This document shows, in pieces, positions 14,041 through 39,712 of a stretch of DNA of 45,448 nucleotides. Below the pieces are notes generated by a model, which was not told the origin of the DNA, made no database searches, and saw nothing but the letters and a program-made list of their open reading frames with translations. Both the position numbers and the translations under genes were made by a program. The number at the start of each line of letters is the position of its first letter. The first letter of the stretch is position 1. The stretch is from Candidatus Izemoplasma sp. (GTDB lineage: Bacteria; Bacillota_I; Bacilli_A; Izemoplasmatales; Izemoplasmataceae): positions 1 to 45,448 of the forward strand of contig SLFZ01000041.1 in the NCBI GenBank assembly GCA_007123975.1, given 5' to 3'.

Positions 14041-14390
14041 CTGCGTTTTTGACAATCGAGCTCGTCTTCGGACGGGTTAGGAAAGTCCATGCTAGCACGG
14101 GCTGTGATGCCCGTAGTGATTGCGCTGGCGGAAACCATAACGCCAGGCACCCGGAAGGGTGACGGCTGGGATGGCACCCCTTTGGGGTGTCGGACCCTTT
14201 AAAAGTGCCACAGTGACGATGCCAGGGAGCAATCCCCGGAGTGGAACGGGTAAACCCCGCAAGCTAGAAACCCAAAATATGGTAGGGGCGCCCTTCAACG
14301 GGAAACGAACCGACGAAGGGGCGGTCTATGACCGCAGATAAATGATTGTCGCCTGAAAAGGCACAGAACATGGCTTATGAAAACGTGGTT
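14041..14390 (+). ncRNA. rnpB: RNase P RNA, type B (Bacillus-type)
   Basis: Matches conserved blocks of B. subtilis RNase P RNA: AGGAAAGTCCATGCTAGCACGG, GTGCCACAGTGACGA, AGTGGAACGGGTAAACCCC, GAAACCCAAAATATGGTAGGGG, AGATAAATGATTGTCGCCTGA and ACAGAACATGGCTTA. P1 pairs 14044-14050 with 14379-14385. Ends are approximate, within about 5 nt. Confidence 0.9.
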
Positions 14391-18427: not shown

Positions 18428-19603
18428 ATGTACGAACGAATTTTCCTCATTGTCATCGACAGCGTTGGCATCGGTGAGATGCCGGATGCCGCCGAATACG
18501 GTGACGCCGGCGCCAACACCTTAAAAAACTTGGCCGCCGCCACCGGAGGGATTGCTTTGCCCACGATGGAAAAACTCGGCATCGGCAATCTCACGGATAT
18601 TCACGGTGTGAACCCGATGAAAAAAGCGCTCGGGTACTATGGAAAAATGGCCGAGTTAAGCGTCGGAAAAGATACGATGACAGGCCATTGGGAACTGATG
18701 GGTCTTCATGTGACCGAGCCTTTCCAAACGTTCACCGAGACAGGGTTCCCCGAAGCGCTAATCGATGAACTCTCGCGCCGGACCGGTCGCGCCATCGTCG
18801 GCAACAAAGCCGCCAGCGGCACCGAGATCCTCGATGAACTCGGCGAACATCAACTGAAAACCGGAGACCTCATCGTCTACACCAGCGCCGACAGCGTTTT
18901 GCAGATTGCTGCGCATGAAGAAAAGGTCGGACTGGATGCCTTGTACGAGGCATGCGAAATCGCGCGAGAACTGACGATGGATGAACGATACAAAGTGGGA
19001 CGCGTCATCGCCCGGCCGTTCATCGGCGAGAAAAAAGGCGCGTTCAAGCGCACGGCTAACCGCCGCGATTACGCGTTAAAGCCTTTTGCGAAAACCACGC
19101 TCGACCACCTCAAAGCGGCCGGCAAAGACGTCGTCGCGTTTGGAAAAATCAACGATATCTACGATGGCGAAGGCATCACCGAAAGCCATAAACAAAAAAA
19201 CAACGAGGAAGGCATGGAAAACGTCATTGCCTATGCGCGCCGTTCGTTTGAAGGCTTGGCCTTCTTGAACCTCGTTGATTTTGATGCGCTCTACGGCCAC
19301 CGTCGCGACCCGGAAGGCTATAAACAAGCCCTCGAAACGTTTGACGGGCAGCTTGCAGACTTAATCGACGTGCTCGGTGAGCGTGATCTGCTCATCGTCA
19401 CCGCCGACCACGGTAACGACCCTACGCACACCGGAACCGACCACACCCGTGAGTACGTGCCTTTGTTGGTATATAACGCTCGGTTTAAAGGCGGAGCGCT
19501 CACGATGCGTGAGACGTTTGCGGACGTTGCTGCCACGATCGCCGAGGTGTTTAATATCCAAGCACCGAACATTGGAACGAGTTTCCTCAAAAGCCTCAAA
19601 TAA
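18428..19603 (+). CDS. deoB: Phosphopentomutase
   Basis: [21 protein letters not shown]... and ...TADHGNDPT are phosphopentomutase signatures. The ATG at 18428 lies 8 nt after AAGGAG; the track GTG at 18419 is inside the RBS. Confidence 0.93.
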
Positions 19604-19605
19604 AA

Positions 19606-19648
19606 AAGGCCTTCCCAATCGCTTAAGGCGATCAGGGAAGGCTTTTTT
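19606..19648. terminator. Bidirectional terminator shared by deoB (+) and the coiled-coil operon (-)
   Basis: GGCCTTCCC (19608-19616) pairs with GGGAAGGC (19635-19642), flanked by A-run and T-run. It lies between convergent stops. Confidence 0.8.
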
Positions 19649-22517
19649 AATACTTGGCATCAATGGCGGTGATGTTCGCTTTATGCTCTTCTTCAAGACG
19701 CTTTTGAATCGGCTTCAGTTTCGGGTCTTGACCGCGCGTGACCGACTTCAGGTAGCGCTTAAAGGCACGAATGGTGGACTGCAGGGCCTTTTCGAGTTGA
19801 ACGCGATCGGCATCGAGTTCCGATAACGTCGCTTTCACGTCTGCTTGCAGATTGTCAAGTTGTTTTTTGGTTGCGGATTCAAGCGATGATTTGGCAATTT
19901 TGAGTTCTTTGAGGAGTTCGGCTTTCAACGACTCGACGGGAATTTTGGCCTCGACAGTGTCGAGTTTCTTACGCGCATCATCAAAGGCGGACGCGGTCGC
20001 TTGCGTGCGTTCATCGAGGTTTTTGAACTCGTCGCGATAGCGCGCGTCAATCGCTTGCATGGCTTGATAATGTTCTTCGGCAAGCGCCATACGCTCAGCC
20101 TCAAAAGCCTCGACGTCAATCGCCGTATCGGCCTCGAGTTGACGAAGTTTCTCGTCGATGGCGGCGATTTTTCCTTGCGGCTCAGCGATTTTTTCATCGC
20201 GTTGTGCTTTGGCTTCGGCAAGCGCTTCCTCAAGGCGTCCTTTGGCTGTTGATGTGGACTCCGATTCGATGTAAGGAATCAGTTTGGAGTCCTCGCGGCG
20301 CTCGAACATCTCGAGCTTTTCTTCGCTTTGTTTAAGCAGCGATTCGAAAGTTTCAACGGTTTTTTGCTTTAAGCCTTCGGCGTCCTCTTTGGCCTTTTTC
20401 GCCCGTTGTTCGGCGGCGTCAATTTGCTTGTTGTAGCGGATGATAAGGGCATCGTTTTCTTTGTCCGATTCAAGTTTTTCAAGCCGTTCTGTGTAGTGCT
20501 CAATCAGACGGGCTTTTTGGCTTTCAAGCTCTTCACGGTCTTTTTCTTCGACAAAAAGCGCCAGGCGGTACTCCACGGTCTCGAGTTTCTCATCGCGCTC
20601 TTCAAGCAACGCCTTGCGTTCATAAAGGTAGGGTTGTTCGGCTTTGGCGAGCTTCTGCTGGGCGTACTCGAGTTCTTGAGCGCGTGCTCGTTCGATGTTT
20701 TCAACCCGTGCATCGTATTCCTTGTGGGCGAACTTGATTTGTTGTTCAGCAAACAAGCGCTGGCTTTCCACGGTCGTTCGAACCATCGCTTCATTGACGC
20801 CCATTCCGACGTTCAAACGTTCGGCTTGGCTCTTGGTGATGTCAATCTCACCTTGATAAAGCGACCGAATTTTCAGCAGCTGGAGTTCGTATTCCTTCTC
20901 GGCAACCTCCATTTGTCCTTCAAGGTAGATGCGCTCGTTTTTTGCGTCTTCCTGAGCTCGGATGCGGTTGATGTCAGCATGCTTTTCTTGGCGATTTTGC
21001 TTTTCCAACAAGGCCTTATGCCGGGTGGCGTAGTTGATGTTTTCGGCAGTTTCATCCAACGCTTTTTGCAAGGTCAAGACGAAGCGATCCTCGTCGTCGG
21101 CTTTGGTTTTCAGACGTTCAGCCAAATCGAGTTCGAGGGTCTTGAACGTCCGTTTTAACTCGTTGAGGCGTTCAAGCGCCTTGAGTTCGGCGAGGGCGAA
21201 ATCGCCGTGTTCGGCAAGGACAATTTTTTGCAGACCTTCGGCGAAACGGATTAATGCTTTATTATAATCGGCGAGGCCTTGGTGGAAACGTTTGAGTTCG
21301 TCGACATAACGAGCATTGACCTTGCGGTCGTTTTCCAACGCCTTGTGGTCTTCACGTACCTTAAAGAGCGCGGTCGATTCCTTAAACTTCAGTTTTTCCG
21401 TTTCGAGCTGGATTTTCAGTTTGTATGTTTCGTCTTCGTGTTTGCGTTCAATCGTTTTTCGTTGCGCCAAAAGCTTGTCGCGTTGGCGCTTGGTCTTTTG
21501 GCTTGCGAGGCGTTTCACTTGTTCTTCGTAGAGTGAAAGGTTTTGTTTTTCTTTACGATCGTAGGCTTTCAGCAACGCGGCGAGTTTTTTCTCATCGCGC
21601 TGTTTTTCCGCTGTCATGATGTCGAAGCGCAACTGTTTCAAGTCGTCTTGTAGGGTCGAGCGCAGTTTCTTCTCGGCTTCAAGCCGTTTTTGGAACTTTT
21701 GTTTGAACTGGTCAAGGGTATCGCTTTCCAGCGTCTCGAGCTCGTCGTCAATTCGCGCGAGTTTCTCCTCACAGGAGGCTTGGCTTTCTTTGATGCGTTG
21801 TTCGAGTTTTCCGACGGCGCGTTCATACATTCGATCGATTTTTTCGCTGAAGAAGTCGTCTTCGGTGGAGGTGTAGAAGAAGTGCGTTCGTTCTTCATCG
21901 GCAATTCTCAATCCTTGACGTAAACTTTGAAGGCCTTTCTTAAAGGCTTCAAAGCCTTCGTTATGTTTCTCAATCAACGACGGAATGGCCGTTTCACCAT
22001 CCAGTCGATTCGCAAACACGTCCTCGGTCGAATCAAAGAGTTGTTCGACCCACGTGAGGGTGTGGGTTTTTAGCGGTTCAATGATTGCTTCACCGACGCC
22101 AATGTCGCGTTGTCGTTCGGTGGCGAAGAATGCCTTGATGCGGTTTTTGAGCATGGTCAGATGAACGCTGAAGGGATGGTCCCGAAGGTAGCGTGCATCA
22201 AAAAGACGCAACGAACGAAGCGAAGCGTGAATATCGTCGCGTGCGGTTAAGAGATGTTGGAACTGCTCGGCTGTTGAGGTTTCGCGGGTGTCGATGTCTT
22301 CTTTGAGCGCATCGATTTCTTTGTTGAGGGCAGCGAGTTTGTCGTTGGTCTCCTCAACACGGCGAAGGTGGCCTTCTTTGACCTTTTGGTTCGCCTCATA
22401 AACCTCTTTGATGAGTTTTTGCAAAAGTTCGGATTCCTTCTGCAAATCTTCATCGATGAGCAGGGCCAAATCGCGATTCGCTTTGGAGAGGGTCGCTAGT
22501 TCGTGCTTTTTGGCCAT
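19647..22517 (-). CDS. Giant coiled-coil protein B (956 aa), unknown family
   Basis: Uninterrupted 2.87-kb ORF. The ATG lies 16 nt after the upstream stop with AAAGGA in the spacer. The sequence is dominated by E/K/R/L/A/D/Q in heptad-like runs, with a less regular segment around residues 100-235. No TM segment, signal peptide, Walker A or LPXTG. Confidence 0.85.
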   Translation of the reverse strand: MAKKHELATLSKANRDLALLIDEDLQKESELLQKLIKEVYEANQKVKEGHLRRVEETNDKLAALNKEIDALKEDIDTRETSTAEQFQHLLTARDDIHASLRSLRLFDARYLRDHPFSVHLTMLKNRIKAFFATERQRDIGVGEAIIEPLKTHTLTWVEQLFDSTEDVFANRLDGETAIPSLIEKHNEGFEAFKKGLQSLRQGLRIADEERTHFFYTSTEDDFFSEKIDRMYERAVGKLEQRIKESQASCEEKLARIDDELETLESDTLDQFKQKFQKRLEAEKKLRSTLQDDLKQLRFDIMTAEKQRDEKKLAALLKAYDRKEKQNLSLYEEQVKRLASQKTKRQRDKLLAQRKTIERKHEDETYKLKIQLETEKLKFKESTALFKVREDHKALENDRKVNARYVDELKRFHQGLADYNKALIRFAEGLQKIVLAEHGDFALAELKALERLNELKRTFKTLELDLAERLKTKADDEDRFVLTLQKALDETAENINYATRHKALLEKQNRQEKHADINRIRAQEDAKNERIYLEGQMEVAEKEYELQLLKIRSLYQGEIDITKSQAERLNVGMGVNEAMVRTTVESQRLFAEQQIKFAHKEYDARVENIERARAQELEYAQQKLAKAEQPYLYERKALLEERDEKLETVEYRLALFVEEKDREELESQKARLIEHYTERLEKLESDKENDALIIRYNKQIDAAEQRAKKAKEDAEGLKQKTVETFESLLKQSEEKLEMFERREDSKLIPYIESESTSTAKGRLEEALAEAKAQRDEKIAEPQGKIAAIDEKLRQLEADTAIDVEAFEAERMALAEEHYQAMQAIDARYRDEFKNLDERTQATASAFDDARKKLDTVEAKIPVESLKAELLKELKIAKSSLESATKKQLDNLQADVKATLSELDADRVQLEKALQSTIRAFKRYLKSVTRGQDPKLKPIQKRLEEEHKANITAIDAKY

Positions 22518-22533
22518 CCGGGGTCATCCTTTC

Positions 22534-25500
22534 TCAGTCGCGGTCGGCGATGGTGCGAGCCGTCTCGCGAACGAGGCGGTCGATGAAATCGTCTTGCAGG
22601 GCGGTGAGTGCCTTGGCCGGCGCCGTCGCTTCGATGTGGAAACTGTCGCGTAAGATGTCGGTGGCGTCGTTCAAGGCTTGTTTCAGTTTTTTAAGCTCAT
22701 TGTCTTCGGCGTGTCTGAACGCTTCGCGATGGTTTTGGACATCGGCGATGAGGGCGGCGAGTTTTTCACGTTGGATGCCGGCGTCTCGATCAACCGAGCG
22801 TGCGGCTTCCTCTATGCTTTCTTCTAAACGTTGCGCGCCCGTAAGCATCTGTGCTTCATGCGCTTCGTTGGTGGCTTTGAGTTTGGCGTTAAGGGCGTCG
22901 ATGCCTTGTTTGGTCTCGACTTCGATCGATTCAATCGATTCGCGAAGTTCGATGATTTGGCTTTCGCTGCGCTGGGCGTTTTGGTCGACGGATTCTTGAC
23001 GGAGGTTGTCGGCGGCGTCGAGTTTGCTTCGGTGGGCTTTTCTTTCATACTCGACAATTTGACCCGCATCCTCAAGACGACCATGCAATTTTTCGAGTTT
23101 CTGAGTATATGCTTTTTCGTGTTCGGCCATGAGGCGGGTGTGTTTTTGATCGATTTCGGCGATGGCTTGATCGCGATCGGCGTTCAAGCGCTCAATGTCC
23201 TCACGCGCCTTTTTTTCATGATGCTTTTTCGTCTCCATAAGACGTTCGGTTTCCGTTTTTAAAGCATTTACTTGACGGTCGACCGTGGCGGTTCGTTCGG
23301 CGAGTTTGCTCTCAAAGGCAGCGCGGTGTGCGTCGAGTTCTTGATCATGGGCAGCAAGGTTTTCCTCGACCGCGGCTTCCAACGGTTGAAGTTCTTGTTC
23401 GAACTTGGCGGCGGTTTGTGCACGCGCTTTTTTGTGGTTGGCACGGGCGCGTTCAACGAGCGCGCGGTCGGCGGCGTTCAGTCCTTCATACACGGCCACG
23501 ATGGCGTCATCCAAACTGCGGTGTTCGGCCTCGACGTTGTCCCGGATAAATTGGTAAACGGGGGCTAGTTTGTCTTTGAGCACGCGCAGCGTGGTTTTCT
23601 GTTCGCCACTCACTTTTTTCTTCGCATCGTCGAGGCGACGCAAGAAGGCTTGAATGGCTTGTTCCTTTTGTTTGACAATTCGCTGGCTTTGACGCTCGTG
23701 CTCTTGGTTTGCCTTGTCGCGGAGGGTTTGACGTTTTTTGGCGTCATCGACGTCTTTGAGTTTGCGTTTCAAGGTGACATCATGCTGGAAACGCGTGGCT
23801 TCTAGCACGCGTTCATAGGCGTGTTCAAGCCACATCTCAAGCTGCTTTGCGAAAGGTCTTGCGACTAAAATAAGCAGTGATTTTAGGCTGCTTTCAGGGT
23901 CTTTAAGCGTCTTTTCATAGGCATCGAGGGTGTTTTTGAGGGGTTCGTAATGCGGCTTGATAAGTTCACGCTCGTGGTTTATGGTGTCGGTCATTGAGCG
24001 GATGTTTTTAAGCGCCGACTCGGTTTCACGCTCTAAGGCGCGATCGATAAACGAAAGGCGCTCGTCGCGGCGACGTTTCGTGTCTTCTATATCCTCGCGC
24101 AGGGTTTGCTGGTTGCGTTCAAAGGTGCGAATCAAAGCGCGTTTGGCTTTTTCGTGGTTGTCGCGCTCGACCTCGCGGAGCTTTTTGCGCTTTTCATCCG
24201 CAAGGCGCAGGGTTTGTTCGATGGCGTCGATTTCGTAGTCTATTTTGGTCGTCGCCTCACGGGTTTCACTGACGACGTCGTTGACCTCCATGTCAAACTC
24301 GCGGTTAATGGCGTGTTTTTCGATGGCGGTTTCAACACGGATGCGCTCGGTTTCAATGTCGCGACGCGTTGTCAACAACTCGATGTCGCGCTCGACGTGT
24401 GTCTTGCGCAATTGATGCACAGCGTCTGACACGGCCTGGGCCAGCTCGAGTTGTTCGACGGACAAGGCGTGTTGATGTTCAACCTTGGTGTTTTCAAGCC
24501 GCTCTTGTTCGCGAACGATTTTTATGTCGCTTAAGCGGTGATGTTTTTTGATGCGAGCTTCGTGTTCAAGGTTGGCTTTGTCGAGATCAAAGCGCAGCTT
24601 GGCAATGCGCATGTCGTAGCGAAGGGCAGCGTCCTCCTGCTCAACAAGCAGTTTGCTTTTGTTGATGCTGATTTCTTTGCGTGCGTCCAAACTGTCGAGG
24701 AAACCTTCAATGTCGTCGATCTGACGGTGAACGTCTTTGAGCTTTTTCATGGCGTCAACGTGAAGGTTGGCGCGGTTTTTCTCGAAGGCATCCAACGCAG
24801 AAAAACACCGATCGACGAAGGCGTTTAAGGTTTTAAACGTCGCATGAGGATGCAAGGCATCGGTCGTCGCGGCGGCTTTGATTTCGGTTTGTTCAACGTG
24901 GTCTTCAACCACAGCGAAAATCGCTTTGATGCGATTGTGGTTGGCTTTAAGTCCTTCGCCGAAGGATTCAAACGCTTGGCCGACAGTGCCTAAGGCATTG
25001 GTGATGGCTTTGTCGGCGAGTTTGGCGTGTCGAGCGATTAACTCGATGACCATTGATGCCTGCTTTTCCAACGTGTTGCGCCGCAGTTCGGCGAGTTTAA
25101 GGCGTTGGTTGAGGTCGCGGATTTCTTCTTTGGTGAGCCCTGATTGCGGGGCTGCCTTGATCGCGGTTTCTAAGCGATTACGCTCAAAGTCGTAATCGAG
25201 TTTTAGGGTGTCTTTGACACGGGAGAGGTAATCTTTGGTGTCGTTGACGAGGGATTGAATGGTTGCTTGGCATGCATTGAAGGGGCTTTCAAGCGCAGCA
25301 CGGTCTTGCGTGATGCGGGCGTCGATGGCTTTAAGACGTTGGTTGAAACGTCGGCGAAACGCGTTCGTGGCACCGGTGATTGTACGCGTGTGCTCACCGG
25401 TGGCTGTTTTTTCATCTTTAAGCCCAGATTCAAGCGCTTCGCGATGGGCCTTTAGGTCGTTTTGCAAGGCTTTGTAGATTGCTTTTGATGCTTGGTTTTC

Positions 25501-26037
25501 ACCGCTTGCAACACGTGAAAGCGCGTCGATTTCTTCATCGACGCTGGTTGCCATGCGTTTAAGGTTTTTCGTTAGGTTTTGTTTGAACTCGTTGAGTTTT
25601 TCTTCGTAGGTTTTTATCGCTTCTAAATGGCGTTTCTCAATTTCTTTGACTTTGACTTTTCGCTCGTTTTCCAACGCTTGGATGTCGTCTTCAATCAGCA
25701 TCGCCGATTTTTTATGGTCGAGTTTGAAGGCTTCGATTTCGGTGCGGATGGCGGCTTTTAGATCAGCGATGGCTTTTTCAATCTTCGCGATTTCTTGCTT
25801 TTGGGCGCGCTTGCGAACTTCGATGCTGTCGGAGTATTGCTTTTCGAGGCGGACTTTGTCTTTCGTGAAGGCACGTTCTTTTTGTTCGTAGGCGGCTTCC
25901 GAGTCCTTGGTCAGCGCGTCGAAGCGTTTGTTGATGTCGGCTAACGCTTGGTAATCGCGTTTGATGCGACGGTTGTAGCGTTTTTCAATCTCATAGCGCG
26001 TGGTGGTATCCGCGTCTTTAGCGAATGGGTCTTTCAC
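22534..26037 (-). CDS. Giant coiled-coil protein A (1167 aa), unknown family
   Basis: Uninterrupted 3.5-kb ORF. GTG start 8 nt after GAGGAGG. Charged helical sequence throughout, with interrupted regions around residues 170-470 and 690-760. No TM segment, signal peptide, P-loop or catalytic motif seen. Confidence 0.85.
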   Translation of the reverse strand: MKDPFAKDADTTTRYEIEKRYNRRIKRDYQALADINKRFDALTKDSEAAYEQKERAFTKDKVRLEKQYSDSIEVRKRAQKQEIAKIEKAIADLKAAIRTEIEAFKLDHKKSAMLIEDDIQALENERKVKVKEIEKRHLEAIKTYEEKLNEFKQNLTKNLKRMATSVDEEIDALSRVASGENQASKAIYKALQNDLKAHREALESGLKDEKTATGEHTRTITGATNAFRRRFNQRLKAIDARITQDRAALESPFNACQATIQSLVNDTKDYLSRVKDTLKLDYDFERNRLETAIKAAPQSGLTKEEIRDLNQRLKLAELRRNTLEKQASMVIELIARHAKLADKAITNALGTVGQAFESFGEGLKANHNRIKAIFAVVEDHVEQTEIKAAATTDALHPHATFKTLNAFVDRCFSALDAFEKNRANLHVDAMKKLKDVHRQIDDIEGFLDSLDARKEISINKSKLLVEQEDAALRYDMRIAKLRFDLDKANLEHEARIKKHHRLSDIKIVREQERLENTKVEHQHALSVEQLELAQAVSDAVHQLRKTHVERDIELLTTRRDIETERIRVETAIEKHAINREFDMEVNDVVSETREATTKIDYEIDAIEQTLRLADEKRKKLREVERDNHEKAKRALIRTFERNQQTLREDIEDTKRRRDERLSFIDRALERETESALKNIRSMTDTINHERELIKPHYEPLKNTLDAYEKTLKDPESSLKSLLILVARPFAKQLEMWLEHAYERVLEATRFQHDVTLKRKLKDVDDAKKRQTLRDKANQEHERQSQRIVKQKEQAIQAFLRRLDDAKKKVSGEQKTTLRVLKDKLAPVYQFIRDNVEAEHRSLDDAIVAVYEGLNAADRALVERARANHKKARAQTAAKFEQELQPLEAAVEENLAAHDQELDAHRAAFESKLAERTATVDRQVNALKTETERLMETKKHHEKKAREDIERLNADRDQAIAEIDQKHTRLMAEHEKAYTQKLEKLHGRLEDAGQIVEYERKAHRSKLDAADNLRQESVDQNAQRSESQIIELRESIESIEVETKQGIDALNAKLKATNEAHEAQMLTGAQRLEESIEEAARSVDRDAGIQREKLAALIADVQNHREAFRHAEDNELKKLKQALNDATDILRDSFHIEATAPAKALTALQDDFIDRLVRETARTIADRD

Positions 26038-26075
26038 CGTGCTGACCTCCTCGTGTGTGGCGTAATGTTGCCCTT

Positions 26076-26104
26076 ATTTTAACATAGAAAGGTCAAGGTG
26101 ACAA
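26076..26104 (-). promoter_or_regulatory. Candidate sigma-A promoter of the coiled-coil operon
   Basis: On the minus strand: TTGTCA (26104-26099), 17-nt spacer ending in TGt, TAAAAT (26081-26076). About 40 nt upstream of the GTG start. Confidence 0.55.
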
Positions 26105-26131
26105 TTGAGATTATCCTTTTGCGGGCTTTCG

Positions 26132-26160
26132 TTGGTATTGTCGGCGGTTTGGTGTATAAT
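26132..26160 (+). promoter_or_regulatory. Candidate ruvB promoter
   Basis: TTGGTA (26132-26137), 17-nt spacer, TATAAT (26155-26160). Back-to-back with the divergent coiled-coil promoter. Confidence 0.5.
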
Positions 26161-26179
26161 TTTCACTGAGGTGATGGCC

Positions 26180-27187
26180 ATGGAAGAACGACTTGTGTCC
26201 GGTGAACGACACGACACAGACATTGAACCGTTGAGCTTGCGTCCGAAGACGCTTGCCGAATACATCGGGCAAGATCACGTCAAAGAAATGATGGACATTT
26301 TTATTCGCGCAGCCAAAGGACGGCGCGAAAGTTTGGACCACGTGTTGCTTTATGGGCCGCCCGGACTAGGCAAGACGACACTTGCGAACATCGTTGCCAA
26401 CGAGATTGGTGTGCAAATTAAAGTCACCAGTGGACCAAGCATCGAAAAAAGCGGCGATTTGGCCGTGCTTTTGACGAGTTTGGAACCGGGCGATATATTG
26501 TTCATCGACGAGATTCATCGACTGCCTAGGGTGGTTGAAGAAGTGCTTTATCCGGCGATGGAGGACTTTGTCATTGACTTGATTGTCGGCAAAGACGAAA
26601 CCAGTCGCTCGATTCGTGTTGATTTGCCGCCGTTTACGCTCATTGGTGCGACGACACGCTTTGGTGACTTAACGGCGCCGTTGCGAGAGCGTTTCGGTGT
26701 GGTGCATAAACTCGAGTATTACGATCAAGATGCCCTTGAAAAAATCGCCGCTCGGACGGCGAAAATCTATGAGGCAACTGTCGAAACCGACAGTTTGAAA
26801 GAAATTGCCAGACGAAGCCGTGGAACGCCGCGCATCACCAACCGTTTGTTCCGTCGGATTCGCGATTTCGCCGACGTGTTAAACGATGGGAAGATGGACG
26901 CCGCCATCACCAAAACGGCGCTCGATAAACTCGGCATCGACACGCTTGGCCTCGACCAAAAAGACCACGATTATCTGCGCGGTCTCATTGAAAACTATGG
27001 CGGCGGCCCCGTGGGCGTGGAAAGCCTTGCCACTTCCATCGGGGAAGAGGTGACCACGGTCGAAGATGTGTATGAGCCTTATTTGCTGAAGATCGGGTTC
27101 GTGCAACGCACACCACGAGGGCGTGTGGCCACCGAAAGAGCCTATAAACACATGAAAATACCTTTTCAAGGCGGGTTGTTTGGATGA
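26180..27187 (+). CDS. ruvB: Holliday junction branch migration helicase RuvB
   Basis: MEERLVSGE...[12 protein letters not shown]...[14 protein letters not shown]...DEIHRL is near-identical in pattern to B. subtilis RuvB. The ATG at 26180 follows GAGGTG. Confidence 0.96.
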
Positions 27188-28249: not shown

Positions 28250-28278
28250 AATTAAAACCGGACGCATGGTCCGGTTTT
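28250..28278 (-). terminator. Terminator of the minus-strand MFS operon
   Basis: CCGGAC (28258-28263) pairs with GTCCGG (28269-28274). On the minus strand it is followed by TTTTAATTT. It abuts the MFS stop codon. Confidence 0.7.
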
Positions 28279-29536
28279 AGATTAGGCTGTTTAGGAAGGC
28301 TCGAGAAGGACGACTGAACATCATGATGCAATAGGGCACGACCATCAGCAGCAAACACACGGTGATGAGTGCGCCGATGGAGCCAAACTCAAGCACGACA
28401 CCAGCCAAGGCAAAAGAGAGGGGGATCATCGCGCCGGACAACGTTTCCATGATTGCGAGCACACGACCGCGGACGTCTTGGTCAATGGCACGCATCAGGC
28501 CGGTCATGTAAGGTACGTTGAGGAAAACATTGGCGAACGCGGTTAAGAATAGGGTTGGAAGAAATAGCATCATAAAGGTGTTGTACGGGAGGCGATCAAT
28601 TGAAACGGCAACCATCAGAAAACCAATGAGTATGATACCGATGCCGGTTCCTGTTAGGCCGACACGAATGCTTTTGCCAATCATCAGTTTCGCACCGACC
28701 ACGCCGACGAGCAGACCGCCTGTGAGCATGCCCACAGAGAACATCACTTGGGCGACTGAGAGGTGGTAAGCTTCCTTGCCCAACACAACGTTGAAGAGGA
28801 AGGGGAAGCCGTTGGCAAAGATTGGACTGACGGCGAAGTTGATGGCGAGCACGGCGAACATGAAGGTTAACAAGCCATGTTTTTGGGTCATGTAGGCGAA
28901 GCCGGCTTTGAGGTCAGCAAACACCTTGGGTGGTTCGGCGCCGACGGGCCGCTTGGGATGCGGTGTTCGGATGAACATTTCGCTGATGGCGCTGACGATG
29001 AAGCTGATGCCGTTGATGATAAATATCAGTTCGATGCCGAGGAAGGCATACAGGATACCGGCGAGCAAAATGCCGATAATCGATTGGACGCTGTTGATGA
29101 AACTGAATAACGCATTGGCTTGGTTCAACCGATCGCGGTGCACGATGTCGGGACGAATGGCGGCGACCGCAGGGTAGAAGAAAGCGTTGTTTAGCGCAAG
29201 GATGACGGTGATGCCAAAGAGCAGTGGAATGACCATGCCGTTTGAGGATAGGGCGATGAGGATGCCACCAAGCAAGACAGCCGTGCCGCGAATAAAGTCG
29301 GTGATGTACAAGATACGGACCTTGTGGAGTCGATCGACGAAGACGCCGGCAATCGGTGTCGTGAGAACTTGAACGATGCCGCCGGTGGCGATGTATAGGC
29401 CGGCGATAAGCGGTGAGGCGGTCAGTTCAAGGATGAACCAGCCCACGGCAAAGTTGTAAAACGCGGTGCCGATATGGGAGACGAAACTGCCGACGAAAAG
29501 CAACGTGAAGTTCTTATTTTTTAGCAGGGCGAGCAT
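28277..29536 (-). CDS. MFS transporter (DHA3/EntS-like efflux type)
   Basis: 419 aa with about 12 TM segments. The N-terminal NFTLLFVGSFVSHIGT...VDRLHKVRIL pattern is typical of MFS_3 exporters. Confidence 0.88.
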   Translation of the reverse strand: MLALLKNKNFTLLFVGSFVSHIGTAFYNFAVGWFILELTASPLIAGLYIATGGIVQVLTTPIAGVFVDRLHKVRILYITDFIRGTAVLLGGILIALSSNGMVIPLLFGITVILALNNAFFYPAVAAIRPDIVHRDRLNQANALFSFINSVQSIIGILLAGILYAFLGIELIFIINGISFIVSAISEMFIRTPHPKRPVGAEPPKVFADLKAGFAYMTQKHGLLTFMFAVLAINFAVSPIFANGFPFLFNVVLGKEAYHLSVAQVMFSVGMLTGGLLVGVVGAKLMIGKSIRVGLTGTGIGIILIGFLMVAVSIDRLPYNTFMMLFLPTLFLTAFANVFLNVPYMTGLMRAIDQDVRGRVLAIMETLSGAMIPLSFALAGVVLEFGSIGALITVCLLLMVVPYCIMMFSRPSRAFLNSLI

Positions 29537-29927: not shown

Positions 29928-30290
29928 TCACTTCAACATCTTCAACGCTTGTTCGGAGGTGATTTCACCGTCCGCGAGCTTTTGAAGGATTTCGTCTTTT
30001 TTAGCTTGATCTTCATCGTCGCTTACCGTGTAACCGAGGTGGACGATGACTTCGTCAAGCATTTTTTTGACCGTCGGATACGAGATTTTGAGTTCTTTTT
30101 CGAGTTGTTTGATGCTGCCTTTGTTTTTGATGAAGAGTTCAATAAAGTACAGGTGCTCTTTCGAAAGGTAGTTGAACTTCGACAGTTGGAACTGCCCACT
30201 AATTTCTGTGTGGCAATTTGAACACTCCAATTTTGTTACAAACAGATCGTGGTTGCAAATCGGGCATTCGCCGATAACATGTTTTTGCAT
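29928..30290 (-). CDS. DUF2089-type zinc-ribbon / HTH protein
   Basis: CPICNHDL...CSNCHTEISG zinc ribbon, then LSKEHLYFIELFIKNKGSIKQLEKELKISYPTVKKMLDEV (HTH). The tail ILQKLADGEITSEQALKMLK is SHOCT-like. Confidence 0.85.
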   Translation of the reverse strand: MQKHVIGECPICNHDLFVTKLECSNCHTEISGQFQLSKFNYLSKEHLYFIELFIKNKGSIKQLEKELKISYPTVKKMLDEVIVHLGYTVSDDEDQAKKDEILQKLADGEITSEQALKMLK

Positions 30291-30301
30291 AAAATCACTC
30301 C

Positions 30302-30766
30302 TTATTTTATTCTGATGGCGATGATGGCGTCTTCGCTTTCGATGTCGATGCGGGTGCCGCGTGCGAAGCGTAAGTAGCGGCCGATTTCTTGGAAATCGAT
30401 GGTGTCGAGTTGTTGACTGGATGAGGCGATTTTTTCTTTGACTTCATCGCGTTTTGCTTCGTCGATGTGGTCGAGGTGCTTCGTGGTTTTTTGCACCGCG
30501 TGCGGCGCGTGCTTCCCGGCGATGTTGAGAAAGAAACGAACCATGCCGATGGGAATGGGCATCGCAAAGATGGTGCGCATGAGAAGGTTAACCCGCTTGG
30601 ATTCATTGGGGAGTTTCATGCGAATACGGATGAACCGCGCTTTTTTAAATCCTTTAAACGCAGCCGGATTCTCAATCGTTTCCAGCGCGTCTTCAGGAAC
30701 GGTATCGCCGCGATAGAGTGCATTTAAGACCTCGTGCTTCGACGTGGATTTCTCTAGTGCAATCAT
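30302..30766 (-). CDS. Hypothetical 154-aa protein, first gene of the DUF2089 operon
   Basis: The ATG follows GAGGTG and a consensus promoter. It shares FxRIR...(K/R)VN(L/V) and G-x-(R/K)-I-(I/V)-DIES-x-D motifs with the 125/130-aa protein. Confidence 0.7.
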   Translation of the reverse strand: MIALEKSTSKHEVLNALYRGDTVPEDALETIENPAAFKGFKKARFIRIRMKLPNESKRVNLLMRTIFAMPIPIGMVRFFLNIAGKHAPHAVQKTTKHLDHIDEAKRDEVKEKIASSSQQLDTIDFQEIGRYLRFARGTRIDIESEDAIIAIRIK

Positions 30767-30797
30767 CGTGTCACCTCGTTTTTTATCTTATACCGTC

Positions 30798-30826
30798 ATT
30801 GTAAGCATATATCGATGCGATGTCAA
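30798..30826 (-). promoter_or_regulatory. Near-consensus sigma-A promoter of the DUF2089/MFS operon
   Basis: On the minus strand: TTGACA (30826-30821), 17-nt spacer, TACAAT (30803-30798). An A/T-rich UP-like tract lies immediately upstream (30827-30860). Confidence 0.7.
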
Positions 30827-30932
30827 GTTAAAAATTAAAAAAATTAATTAATACATTAAAAAAATCAATTTAATTCGGCATTATAATTTCAAAAAATCAA
30901 TTAACATTCAAACTGCAAGGGTTTTATTGTCA
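30827..30932. repeat. Extremely AT-rich divergent intergenic block with a 12-nt direct repeat
   Basis: AAAAAATCAATT occurs at 30859-30870 and 30891-30902, 32 nt apart. There are multiple A-tracts and almost no G/C between 30828 and 30905. Confidence 0.6.
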
Positions 30933-31020
30933 TGTGAACACAGTGTTGCGGTGGCGCTTTTTCGTGTTATCATATATAATAAATGCAAACCTTACGAACG
31001 CCACGAACACGGGTGAGACC

Positions 31021-36366: not shown

Positions 36367-36432
36367 CGAAATTGGTTTTATTCTCGCGGTAAATACGTTA
36401 TAATAGGGTAAAGATTTGTGGGAGGTCATACC

Positions 36433-37605
36433 ATGTTTGAACAAAACGACCATTTCAGCCAAAAACCTTCGATAAAAGTCATCGGTGTCGGAGGCGGCGG
36501 TGGAAACGCCGTTAACCGCATGATTGAAAACGAAGTCCAAGGTGTCGACTTTGTCGCCATCAACACCGACGCACAAGTGCTCAGACAATCGAAGGCCAAC
36601 ATCCGCCTGCAAATCGGGAAACTTCTCACCCGTGGACTCGGCGCCGGCGCCGACCCGGAAATCGGACGCCGCGCTGCGCTTGAAAGCGAAGACGAAATCC
36701 GCGAGCTCCTGCAGGAAACCGACATGGTGTTCATCACCGCCGGCATGGGTGGAGGCACGGGAACCGGTGCCGCGCCCGTCATCGCCAAAATCGCCCGTGA
36801 AGCCGGATGCCTCACCGTCGGCATTGTCACAAAACCCTTTAAGTTTGAAGGAAGACGCCGTGTGGGCACCGCGCTTGAAGGATTAGATGCGCTCAAACCG
36901 TACGTCGACACGCTCATTATCGTACCAAACGACCGACTCCTATACGTCACCGACCGCAACACGTCGATGCTCGAAGCGTTCCGCGAAGCCGATAACGTTC
37001 TTAGACAAGGCGTTCAAGGCATCGCCGAGGTCATCACCGTTCCGGGGTTGATCAACCTCGATTTCGCCGACGTGAAGACGGTCATGAAAGACAAAGGGAC
37101 CGCACTCATGGGCATCGGCATCGCCGAAGGCGATAACCGCGCCGTGGAAGCGGCCAAAAAAGCCATTCATTCACCCTTGCTTGATGCCAACATCGACGGC
37201 GCCACCGACGCCATTGTCAACGTCACAAGCGGCACGAACATTGCGCTCTGGGAAGTTACCGAAGCGATTGAAGCCATTCAAGCGTCAAGCTCAACCGAAA
37301 TCAACGTCATTTACGGCACAACCATCAACCAAGACCTTGAAGATGAGGTCATCGTGACGGTCATCGCCGCCGGATTCGACGAGAACCACAAAATCGAACT
37401 CGACAAACTCGGCGAACACGATTACGTGAAACCAACTGACGCCCCCGACGTCGACGACGAGGACGACGAGGACATCAAACCAAAGAAAAAATCCAAGAAA
37501 AAACGCAAGAAAAAAGGGGAAGAGGCAGAAAAAGCTGAGGAGCCCAAGGAAGAAGAACCGTCAAAGACAAACATTCCATCCTGGCTTCGTTCCCGGTTCA
37601 AATAA
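36433..37605 (+). CDS. ftsZ: Cell division GTPase FtsZ
   Basis: [17 protein letters not shown] and [11 protein letters not shown] tubulin signatures. C-terminal conserved peptide IPSWLRSRF. The ATG at 36433 lies 6 nt after GGAGGT. Confidence 0.97.
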
Positions 37606-37717: not shown

Positions 37718-38368
37718 ATGAACCGCACCTTGAAGACTTCCATTGAGAAAAACCATCCCGGCGTGACGATTGTTGTCGCCAGTAAATACTTGACCACACC
37801 AACGGATTTTCGTCCGTTTTTGGACGCCAACCACCGTGTTTTCGGTGAAAACCGCGTGGAAACGTTGCTCGAAAAACGCGCATGGTTTCAGGATGAAGCG
37901 ATTGAATGGCACTACATCGGCACCTTGCAAACGAAGAAGGTCAAGAAAGTCGTCGATGCCATTGACGTGTTGCATTCGCTCGACCGCATCAAACTGGCTG
38001 AAGAAATCGACAAACGTCGCCAAGGAAAACCGCTCCCGTGCTTCGTCCAGGTCAACATCTCCGGCGAAGCGCAAAAACATGGCATCGAGCCGGATGCTGT
38101 GCCGGCGTTTCTCGATGCCGTGCAATCGTTTGAAAAGCTAACCGTCATCGGCCTGATGGGCATGGCCGAAGAAACCGATGACGACGCGCGCATACGCCAT
38201 CAGTTTGAAACATTGGTGCAGTTGCGCGATGCCGTTTCAACGACTTATCCCACCGTCAAACGCTTGTCGATGGGCATGACCCAAGATTACCGCATCGCGC
38301 TCGAACTCGGCGCCGACACCTTGCGCCTCGGTCGCGTGATGCTTAGGGAGGATACGCATGGGACGTAA
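37718..38368 (+). CDS. yggS: PLP-binding protein YggS/YlmE
   Basis: VASKY (PLP lysine), FGENRVE, WHYIGTLQTKK and SMGMTQDY are YggS signatures. Confidence 0.9.
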   Translation: MNRTLKTSIEKNHPGVTIVVASKYLTTPTDFRPFLDANHRVFGENRVETLLEKRAWFQDEAIEWHYIGTLQTKKVKKVVDAIDVLHSLDRIKLAEEIDKRRQGKPLPCFVQVNISGEAQKHGIEPDAVPAFLDAVQSFEKLTVIGLMGMAEETDDDARIRHQFETLVQLRDAVSTTYPTVKRLSMGMTQDYRIALELGADTLRLGRVMLREDTHGT

Positions 38369-38651
38369 AGCGAAATCGGCCTACGACCGCACCGAGTTCA
38401 TCCGCATGTCGGATGAGCACACCGCGTTCGAACTTGCAGACAAACTGCTCCGCCGCAACCCGCTCATCATCAACTTCGAAGATTACAACGTCGTTGAAAG
38501 CAACCGCGTCATCGTCTTTTTAAGCGGTGTCATTTACGCGCTTGATGGCGAGGTTGAGTTGATTAAGGAAAAAGTCATGGCGTTCGCGACGAAGCAGGAT
38601 TTCCGCGACAAGTCGCTGCGCGATTTCATCAAGAAACACAAGGAGACATAA
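38358..38651 (+). CDS. sepF: SepF-like (DUF552) cell division protein, minimal 97-aa form
   Basis: The core ADKLLRRNPLIINFEDYNVVESNRVIVFLSGVIYALDGEVELI matches the SepF FtsZ-binding domain pattern. GGGAGGA RBS. 11-nt overlap with ylmE. Confidence 0.78.
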   Translation: MGRKAKSAYDRTEFIRMSDEHTAFELADKLLRRNPLIINFEDYNVVESNRVIVFLSGVIYALDGEVELIKEKVMAFATKQDFRDKSLRDFIKKHKET

Positions 38652-38654
38652 ACC

Positions 38655-38912
38655 ATGGTGCTTTTCCTGCAAGGACTTTATTACGTGTTGCAAATCTATT
38701 TTTACATTCTGATTGGCTACGTGCTGCTCAGTTGGATTCCCGAGATCCGCAACACCCGCTTTTATTACTACCTCCATCAGCTCGCCGATCCTTACATGCG
38801 TCTGTTTCGAGGCATCCTCGTGTTCGGCCAGATGGATTTTACCCCGGTTGTGGGGTTCATGCTTTACATGTTCGGCTTACGAGCCTTTCAAATGTTCATC
38901 GCCGGACTTTAA
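38655..38912 (+). CDS. yggT: YggT/YlmG family membrane protein
   Basis: 85 aa. YFYILIGYVLLSWIP...ADPYMRLFRG is the YggT signature. AAGGAG RBS. Confidence 0.87.
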   Translation: MVLFLQGLYYVLQIYFYILIGYVLLSWIPEIRNTRFYYYLHQLADPYMRLFRGILVFGQMDFTPVVGFMLYMFGLRAFQMFIAGL

Positions 38913-38938: not shown

Positions 38939-39712
38939 ATGTTCATGTTGTTTGATTTTAAGATTAACCGCTTCATTGCCGTCATCGGCCTTATCGGCCT
39001 CGCCGGATTCCTCTATGGCTTCATGGCGGGCGGCGAAATTCATCCGTTGCTATTGCTTGTGTTAACATTCGGTTACGTGTTCATCCTTGGACGCGTGATG
39101 CGCACCGTCGCCATCAACGGCTACCGCGCCATCCACCAACGCCTCTTTATTTATGCCGATGCCAAAGGCTACTTAGAAGCCGTTGGGCGGATGTACACCA
39201 AAACCGCGCGACGTCGTGACATCCATGGTGTCAAGCTGCAAAACATCATCATGGCCTACGTGTTCGCAGGCGATTATAACCAGGCGAAAACGTACTTTGA
39301 CCAGTACGAAAAAACCTATGCCCAAGCGATTGAACACGATCCCAAAGTCAAGTTCTCACACGGACTGATGGACGCCATGATCGGTCTTTTCACCTTCGAC
39401 AAAGAACGGTTTAAAACCGCTTACGACCGCATCGATGAAATCCTCAACCAAATGCCACCGGGCGACGTCCAGCACGTACGCGACAACCCCTACTCCATCT
39501 TTCACATGATGACGTTGCTTTACGAAGTGCTTTTCCGTGAAGACAAGGTGACCATTAACGCCGCCCAAGCACGCATGAAACAAGACAATCCGTTTGTGAA
39601 CTCGGCGATTTTCTACGTGCTCACCAAGTATGACCAACTTGAAGAAAGCGATTTCGAGTCGTTCAAGCGCGAGAACATGAACACGATGTTCTACCTCGAC
39701 ACCGAGTATTAA
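38939..39712 (+). CDS. Hypothetical 2-TM protein with a helical-repeat (TPR-like) cytoplasmic domain
   Basis: Two N-terminal hydrophobic helices (FIAVIGLIGLAGFLYGF and LLLLVLTFGYVFILG), then a helical domain (AYVFAGDYNQAKTYFDQY). It occupies the ylmH/divIVA position. Confidence 0.7.
   Translation: MFMLFDFKINRFIAVIGLIGLAGFLYGFMAGGEIHPLLLLVLTFGYVFILGRVMRTVAINGYRAIHQRLFIYADAKGYLEAVGRMYTKTARRRDIHGVKLQNIIMAYVFAGDYNQAKTYFDQYEKTYAQAIEHDPKVKFSHGLMDAMIGLFTFDKERFKTAYDRIDEILNQMPPGDVQHVRDNPYSIFHMMTLLYEVLFREDKVTINAAQARMKQDNPFVNSAIFYVLTKYDQLEESDFESFKRENMNTMFYLDTEY

Follow-up and report, generated by a model that had tools for sequence, protein, structure and literature searches.

A syntenic pair of giant hendecad-type helical proteins, a putative structural scaffold of wall-less Izemoplasmatales

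Contig SLFZ01000041.1 of the Candidatus Izemoplasma sp. assembly GCA_007123975.1 was analysed over its whole 45,448 nt (hereafter, the window; coordinates refer to the forward strand). Two adjacent minus-strand genes, which together make up about 14% of the window, encode an all-helical rod protein of 1167 amino acids (gene A, 22534-26037, GTG start) and an all-helical protein of 956 amino acids (gene B, 19647-22517, ATG start). A and B are a new protein-family pair that stands physically among the bacterial coiled-coil-rich structural proteins. They differ from every described member in having no homology to it, two coupled subunits, hendecad rods without a DivIVA head, a fixed length and a host that is free-living and wall-less. 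Our favoured interpretation, to which we give slightly less than an even chance, is that together they form a lineage-specific assembly of two structural subunits, without enzymatic parts, in the wall-less Izemoplasmatales/Liberiplasmatales. A more specific version is put forward tentatively, as possible but doubtful: a vertically inherited two-component cytoskeleton (endoskeleton or membrane skeleton), specific to the free-living wall-less Izemoplasmatales/Liberiplasmatales, in which straight hendecad bundles of fixed subunit length would set the lattice or filament repeat and replace the organisation once given by peptidoglycan.

A sigma-70-like promoter (TTGTCA-17-TAAAAT with a TG extension; 10 of 12 consensus matches) is located at 26076-26104 (-), in the intergenic region common to the divergent ruvB gene. 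The Shine-Dalgarno (SD) sequence of A, GAGGAGG (26046-26052, -), lies 8 nt 5' of the GTG start. A junction of only 16 nt, GAAAGGATGACCCCGG, separates the two genes (22518-22533, -) and contains the ribosome-binding site AAAGGA at 22527-22532. This type of junction is kept in relatives: among 14 related loci, the spacing of A and B extends from an overlap of 4 nt to a gap of about 23 nt, and the A stop codon is usually followed at once by (G)AAAGGA(G). Downstream, an intrinsic terminator hairpin (19601-19649) extends from the deoB stop codon to that of B. It folds at -26.6 kcal/mol (z = -5.95; 0 out of 200 shuffled sequences fold equally well) and is flanked by A/U runs on both sides, so that termination is possible in both directions. 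With a single promoter and a single terminator, a strong SD in front of A and one for B that is tightly linked, this is a predicted two-gene operon for roughly equimolar synthesis. The original prediction, made from the sequence letters, had described two uninterrupted minus-strand open reading frames (ORFs), the promoter, GAGGAGG-N8-GTG, the 16-nt gap with AAAGGA and a bidirectional terminator common to B and deoB, and each of these elements was found at the positions given above. Its proposal that the pair is co-expressed gains support from the tightness of the junction across the related loci. The base composition had likewise been judged similar to that of the flanking genes, and the G+C of the A/B region (0.48-0.53) does match that of the rest of the window. 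In the nearest relative (SLOP01000024.1, locus L006, 12871-13852), about 1 kb separates the B stop codon from deoB, compared to the 43-nt terminator in the window; this extra DNA may be an insertion in the relative.

Both ORFs are real genes under purifying selection. Relative to the nearest relative, the ratio of non-synonymous to synonymous substitution rates (dN/dS) comes to 0.11 in A and 0.07 in B, compared to 0.06 for deoB and 0.03 for ruvB, with dS near saturation in these comparisons. Together with intact orthologues of the same length across related loci, these ratios argue that A and B are not chance ORFs. The composition of the proteins is of low complexity (E/K/R/L/A), and long spurious ORFs are also found on the strand antisense to A/B, as would be seen in low-complexity DNA if the pair had arisen by chance or consisted of decaying genes. 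However, this explanation is refuted by the conservation data, namely the dN/dS values, the same-length intact orthologues found in every locus with enough DNA across the order (one frameshift-ridden metagenome-assembled genome, MAG, excepted) and the conservation of particular blocks and expression signals, and we give it practically no credence. The spurious ORFs, of 100-250 amino acids, are located at 19925-25195, mostly on the opposite strand to A/B (e.g. 20406-21158, +), although one of them (19925-20233) shares the strand of A/B in a different frame. They are explained by the E/K/R-rich, purine-biased coding strand, which leaves the alternative frames poor in stop codons, and the same bias accounts for the AT skew of -0.24 to -0.39 over A/B.

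A word-index search retrieved 15 homologues of B, with identities from 80 to 32%, including a hypothetical protein of Liberiplasma polymorphum. For A, only five homologues were retrieved, even with a profile (among 8000 candidates examined), because the index saturates on coiled-coil words. Orthologues of A were, therefore, taken from the DNA upstream of the B orthologues. An exhaustive hmmsearch of 1.84 billion protein representatives with the B profile retrieved no more than 64 proteins (E <= 1e-3), and every full-length match was 923-981 amino acids long and aligned end to end. The named relatives all belonged to Candidatus Izemoplasmatales, Izimaplasma, Liberiplasma or unclassified Bacilli/Mollicutes MAGs. 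Liberiplasma is described as cell-wall-less and free-living (PMC12700296, reference 65).

The arrangement ruvB-queA / A B / deoB-xerD-hemW(-lepA) was observed in 20 out of 20 distinct loci, including those of B members with E values of 1e-5 to 1e-7. The co-occurrence of the two genes, which the original prediction had raised as a question, was complete: an A-like ORF of 1144-1190 amino acids is encoded directly upstream of B in every locus with enough upstream DNA. No relatives of A or B were detected in the viral contigs, phage genomes and plasmids searched, and an origin from a mobile element was rejected on these grounds. The fixed synteny and the absence of mobile relatives indicate that A/B is an old, vertically inherited core operon of the order, which agrees with the earlier view of the pair as resident rather than recently acquired. 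One of the loci carries an unexpected name. The contig JALMRS010000028.1 of assembly GCA_023156115.1 (locus L024), labelled 'Bacillus subtilis' in NCBI, contains ftsZ, tgt, queA, fragments of A, B, xerD and hemW, with genes split by frameshifts. Given the Izemoplasmatales synteny and the many frameshifts, the label is probably wrong and the assembly indel-rich.

The lengths of both proteins are held while their sequences drift. Intact B genes at the loci examined encode 925-976 amino acids, with identities of 15-80%, and A keeps its length range despite 13-28% identity between lineages. At matching divergence, identity to the window protein falls through 75, 27, 18 and 13% for A and through 80, 45, 30 and 15% for B; thus, A evolves much faster than B. 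The main-clade alignments of A and B are nearly gapless, family lengths vary by a few percent at most, and lengths stay within about 5% even where identity is 13-16%. This constancy also agrees with a discrete complex of fixed length that acts as a ruler, spacer or tether (e.g. of the nucleoid, the membrane or the division machinery) and not as a polymer. The conserved non-rod blocks and loops could be its docking sites, and the genetic design, which favours equimolar synthesis, would suit it as well. However, the operon contains no conserved domain or gene for a partner, and a constant rod length, also typical of the lattice-forming rods of intermediate filaments, does not separate a ruler from a scaffold. 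We regard such a complex as unlikely.

The hydrophobic periodicity of A and B peaks at 3.60-3.64 residues (3.62), not at 3.50, in every lineage, including the most divergent. Among the controls, tropomyosin, which served as a method control only, gave 3.50 and an apoA-I fragment gave 3.66. The autocorrelation lags of A rank 11 > 18 > 29 > 7, those of 14 and 21 are weak, and those of 29, 58 and 87 persist. In both proteins the hydrophobic seam spans about 120 degrees, and Ala is enriched along one of its flanks. The segments A 1-300, A 800-1100, B 1-110 and B 780-956 show the strongest periodicity and B 520-780 the weakest. Each turn takes 3.63 residues in an undistorted alpha-helix and 3.67 in hendecads, and seams of this kind produce little or no supercoiling (PMC9858780). 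A period of 3.62 therefore implies straight, unsupercoiled helices, and A and B are straight-helix proteins of the hendecad type rather than heptad coiled coils. The heptad-like spacing initially read in these sequences is not upheld, in view of the period, the weak lags of 14 and 21, and the tropomyosin control.

Known bacterial hendecad rods are Scy and FilP, polarisome and intermediate-filament-like proteins of Streptomyces. They are very long head-less rods (more than 1000 residues in Scy) with a period of about 3.64-3.67, little supercoiling and small or Ala residues near the core (PMC9858780). A and B resemble them in their hendecad-dominated rods (period of 3.62; lags of 11, 18 and 29), the Ala-enriched flank, and the lack of a catalytic domain and of any apparent need for nucleotides. 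In contrast, there is no detectable homology, and the DivIVA-like motif PF05103 was found in 0 out of 20 members scanned. Moreover, A and B are two distinct subunits, predicted to be translationally coupled, instead of paralogues at separate loci; they contain conserved non-rod blocks, and their host is a wall-less Mollicute, whereas that of Scy and FilP is a walled actinomycete with polar growth. A/B would be a second, unrelated example of giant unsupercoiled hendecad-type rods in bacteria. Since its sequences drift to an extreme degree while length stays constant, the pair lends itself naturally to asking what such rods must conserve.

Scans of the window proteins against Pfam (E <= 1), NCBIfam and PHROG matched no family. 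Neither these proteins nor the 20 family members (5 A and 15 B), scanned at E <= 0.1, matched Pfam DivIVA (PF05103), Filament (PF00038), SMC_N, AAA or EzrA. Single-sequence searches of the PDB with A and B gave noise, the sole match being a keratin fragment (E = 0.024), and a literature search found no paper on either protein. The original prediction had been unable to place A and B in a family by eye, and the profile searches agree: SMC/Rad50, EzrA, DivIVA, intermediate filaments and tape measures all remained unmatched. It had also seen no transmembrane helix, lipobox, LPXTG or Walker A motif, none of which was detected by a script-based scan of 15 A and 17 B family members. Across these members, the maximum Kyte-Doolittle mean over 19 residues is <= 1.13, the N-termini are polar, and no features of surface adhesins or S-layer proteins (signal peptide, lipobox, LPXTG, membrane anchor) were found.

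Several identities were rejected on this basis. EzrA membership is contradicted by the hydropathy values, which leave no transmembrane anchor, and by the absence of a Pfam EzrA match. Membership among intermediate filaments or crescentin is contradicted by the absence of a Pfam Filament match, a period other than 3.5 and a PDB match limited to the keratin fragment. Crescentin and the Ccrp proteins of Helicobacter pylori, some of them encoded by adjacent gene pairs, are nucleotide-free, self-assembling coiled-coil structural proteins involved in cell shaping; they are heptad-based (3.5) and much shorter. A and B depart from them both in the Filament searches and in their period, which differs from that of the heptad control. 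HMW2, from the terminal-organelle rods of Mycoplasma pneumoniae, is a giant cytoplasmic coiled-coil structural protein of the internal cytoskeleton of a wall-less Mollicute. A and B share with it the giant rods and the type of host, and the exhaustive B-profile search matched nothing outside the Izemoplasmatales family of 923-981 amino acids. These free-living organisms are not known to have an attachment organelle.

In the PADLOC search, only residues 612-920 of B gave a match, to the coiled-coil part of the Lamassu LmuB profile (E = 1.2e-6). An identity of B as LmuB was discarded, as the match is restricted to this part of the profile and there is neither an ATPase head nor any defence neighbour. 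Foldseek comparisons of the A and B models with the PDB placed the arms of MukB, SMC5/6 and condensin on top, at template-modelling (TM) scores of 0.05-0.12 and root-mean-square deviations of 44-117 Å for the top-ranked matches. Comparison of A with BFVD returned generic long-helix matches, tape measures included, at TM scores <= 0.15. Being generic long-helix matches at scores of 0.05-0.15, these are no evidence of kinship with SMC proteins or tape measures. A phage tape-measure identity was also rejected on the absence of phage or plasmid relatives and of PHROG matches, and on the core housekeeping genes that flank the pair.

The same structural matches, the weak LmuB match, the basic conserved C-terminal tail of B and the invariable position of the pair between ruvB-queA and deoB-xerD would be in line with an accessory of chromosome organisation or DNA repair, in which head-less arms like those of SMC, MukB or Rad50 work with the neighbouring ruvB, xerD and mutS2. 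A and B do share with such arms helices hundreds of residues long. However, no Walker A motif, ATPase head, hinge or SMC_N match was found in any A or B member, and membership in SMC/Rad50/RecN/MukB was rejected on the lack of Walker A, SMC_N and AAA together with the TM scores of the arms (<= 0.12). SMC arms are expected to be heptad-based, whereas the period of A/B is 3.62 and that of the heptad control 3.50. Furthermore, the neighbours are transcribed separately from the pair, in divergent or convergent units, and among them are unrelated housekeeping genes such as queA, deoB and hemW. We consider a role of this kind quite improbable.

A further possibility is raised by the exchangeable apolipoproteins (apoA-I, apoA-IV and apolipophorin-III), which share with A and B long amphipathic helices, an 11/22-residue periodicity and a composition rich in E/K/R/L/A/Q. 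Lying flat, the 11-mer amphipathic helices of A and B could cover lipid bodies or the cytoplasmic surface of the membrane, as an apolipoprotein-, perilipin- or late embryogenesis abundant (LEA)-like coat that stabilises a wall-less bilayer. The 11-residue basis of the periodicity and the wall-less hosts fit this proposal. Compared with the PDB, the A profile matched apoA-I (E = 8e-4) and apoA-IV (E = 8e-3), with apolipophorin-III marginal (E about 0.1), and the B profile gave marginal matches only (apolipophorin-III, E about 0.1; KMP-11, E about 0.08). In Pfam, PF01442 was the sole family to recur below threshold, in two out of five A members (best E = 0.0012) and one out of 15 B members (0.0052). 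However, the PF01442 matches are far below the gathering threshold, with none reported for the window proteins, and the PDB profile matches amount to about 20 bits. The class-A charge pattern is missing in A and B, both overall and per sub-region, with basic and acidic residues mixed over the polar face, whereas in the apoA-I control K/R rise to 53-54% at +/-80 degrees and E/D to 52-57% on the far face. The hydrophobic face is narrower than that of the apolipoproteins, at only about 120 degrees; Pro and Gly are rare, with few punctuating prolines; and the proteins are bacterial and presumably cytoplasmic. The strict length, the near-gapless alignments and the blocks conserved on all faces are also unlike lipid binders that vary in repeat number. 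The apolipoprotein resemblance is best explained by the common 11-residue periodicity and composition, and a lipid coat seems rather improbable to us.

AlphaFold2 predicted both proteins as almost pure helix, with a predicted local distance difference test score (pLDDT) of 72.9 for A and 75.6 for B, the latter with 17 helices. Single helices of A were predicted at residues 14-294, 450-712 and 817-1065. The first of them, modelled as a single helix of 281 residues and about 40 nm, is the longest; it forms a strongly periodic rod (25156-25998, -) with a period of 3.60. Fully extended, the A/B unit would measure about 140-170 nm. The less periodic middle of A contains a conserved island at residues 421-480 (24598-24777, -), IDDIxxFLDxLDARKEIxINxxKxxVEQEDAAL, and a second island, LxFIDxALxRETE, is located at residues 661-690 (23968-24057, -). 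Residues 121-150 and 1051-1080 are the other conservation blocks of A. Its C-terminal periodic rod (residues 817-1131; 22645-23589, -), with a period of 3.66, is the source of the weak apolipoprotein A-I match and resembles both the N-terminal rod of A and the C-terminal rod of B.

In B, conservation blocks were found at residues 1-100, 270-390 and 510-780. The first is an N-terminal helix (LIDEDLQKESELLQKLIKEVYEANQKVK...; 22218-22517, -), which is highly conserved on all faces. The most conserved block, at residues 510-780 (20178-20990, -), is barely periodic and includes two conserved loops, 558-577 (RLNxGxGVNE) and 737-756 (LxPYIESE), which have low confidence in the monomer model and may be docking sites. 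The C-terminal periodic rod (residues 780-956; 19650-20180, -) has a period of 3.62 and carries the basic conserved tail, TIRAYKRYLK.... The irregular segments had initially been placed at about residues 170-470 and 690-760 of A and 100-235 of B; this analysis located them instead at about 300-800 of A and at 110-220, which is variable, and 520-780 of B. Segment-wise hhalign comparisons of A with B linked the N-terminal rod of A, the C-terminal rod of A and the C-terminal rod of B, with scores of up to 48.5 compared to a maximum of 29.2 in the reversed-sequence null. BLASTP similarity between A and B is weak (E = 0.001); for the C-terminal thirds, whole-profile hhalign put the probability at 81%. 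This hints at a common rod module in A and B, a hint and not a proof, since the null does not preserve directional features of helices.

These features can be arranged into a model for the favoured scaffold. The helices of A and B would pack laterally as straight, unsupercoiled hendecad-type bundles similar to those of Scy and FilP, with lateral and longitudinal contacts provided by the periodic rods A 1-300, A 800-1130, B 220-520 and B 780-956. The register between A and B would be fixed by those irregular blocks that are conserved (B 1-100, B 510-780, A 421-480 and A 661-690), and this would account for lengths that stay within about 5% in sequences that have drifted to 13-16% identity. The heteromer would then assemble without nucleotides into a filament or lattice, either cytoplasmic or beneath the membrane, and give mechanical or spatial organisation to the wall-less cell. 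The known means by which wall-less bacteria keep their shape, divide and withstand osmotic or mechanical stress, namely the fibril and MreBs of Spiroplasma and the terminal organelle of Mycoplasma, are specific to host-associated lineages. If the model is correct, a two-subunit hendecad scaffold supplies the organisation lost with the peptidoglycan wall. A large, unannotated pair under strong purifying selection, in one fixed slot across the order, points to an important undescribed structural role, and the idea is testable, since there is a cultured carrier, Liberiplasma polymorphum C05PYG.

Several points weigh against such a scaffold. We infer co-assembly, the contact between A and B, and their localisation, and the predicted TM scores (pTM) of the monomer models reach only 0.31-0.34. 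The middle block of B (510-780) is not rod-like, and long helical proteins can serve as tethers, rulers, spacers or regulators instead of polymers. Below threshold, the one sequence similarity that recurs links A and B with exchangeable apolipoproteins and not with cytoskeletal proteins. Finally, Izimaplasma HR1 has been reported to have MreB (bioRxiv 10.1101/2020.05.13.095042). The cells of at least one member of the order are, therefore, not devoid of other cytoskeletal elements, and the view that A/B replaces a missing cytoskeleton is not established.

Division genes are encoded elsewhere in the window. The ftsZ gene (36418-37605, +) follows tgt, with no ftsA between them, and is followed by yggS, a 97-amino-acid SepF-like ORF (38358-38651, +) and a YggT-like ORF (38655-38912, +). 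Directly before ileS, which is the divIVA site in Bacillus, there is a gene for a 257-amino-acid protein (38939-39712, +) that has a membrane segment at its N-terminus and matches nothing in Pfam. The original prediction had drawn attention to ftsZ without ftsA, a minimal SepF and the absence of divIVA. This holds only locally, at the scale of the window, where tgt precedes ftsZ, the SepF-like ORF encodes 97 amino acids and no divIVA stands before ileS.

Other genes of the window gave minor observations. A class B bacterial RNase P RNA (14044-14382, +; 278.9 bits) is encoded between pnp and lepA, and its class fits an origin in Bacillota/Mollicutes. The ruvB gene (26105-27187, +), whose upstream neighbour is always the divergent A/B operon, has no ruvA upstream in the window or in the relatives' loci L001, L002, L005, L018, L020 and L022. 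If ruvB is read from the TTG at 26105, its product gains a hydrophobic extension at the N-terminus, and the real start is probably the methionine of MAMEERL near 26177. The G+C dips to 0.43 at 30001-31000, around a 154-amino-acid ORF (30302-30766, -) without a Pfam match, which is located upstream of the gene for a 1016-amino-acid protein of the BcrAD_BadFG/DUF2229 coenzyme A (CoA)-enzyme-activase type. Close by queA, on its downstream side, relatives have a trio of small genes encoding an unknown protein of about 125 amino acids, a DUF2089 Zn-ribbon protein and a SHOCT-like DUF2089-C protein. This trio adjoins queA in L020, whereas in L001-L003 and L022 other genes come between and the distance is 0.7-3 kb. 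The window gene beside queA (28277-29536) encodes an MFS transporter, as in L001.

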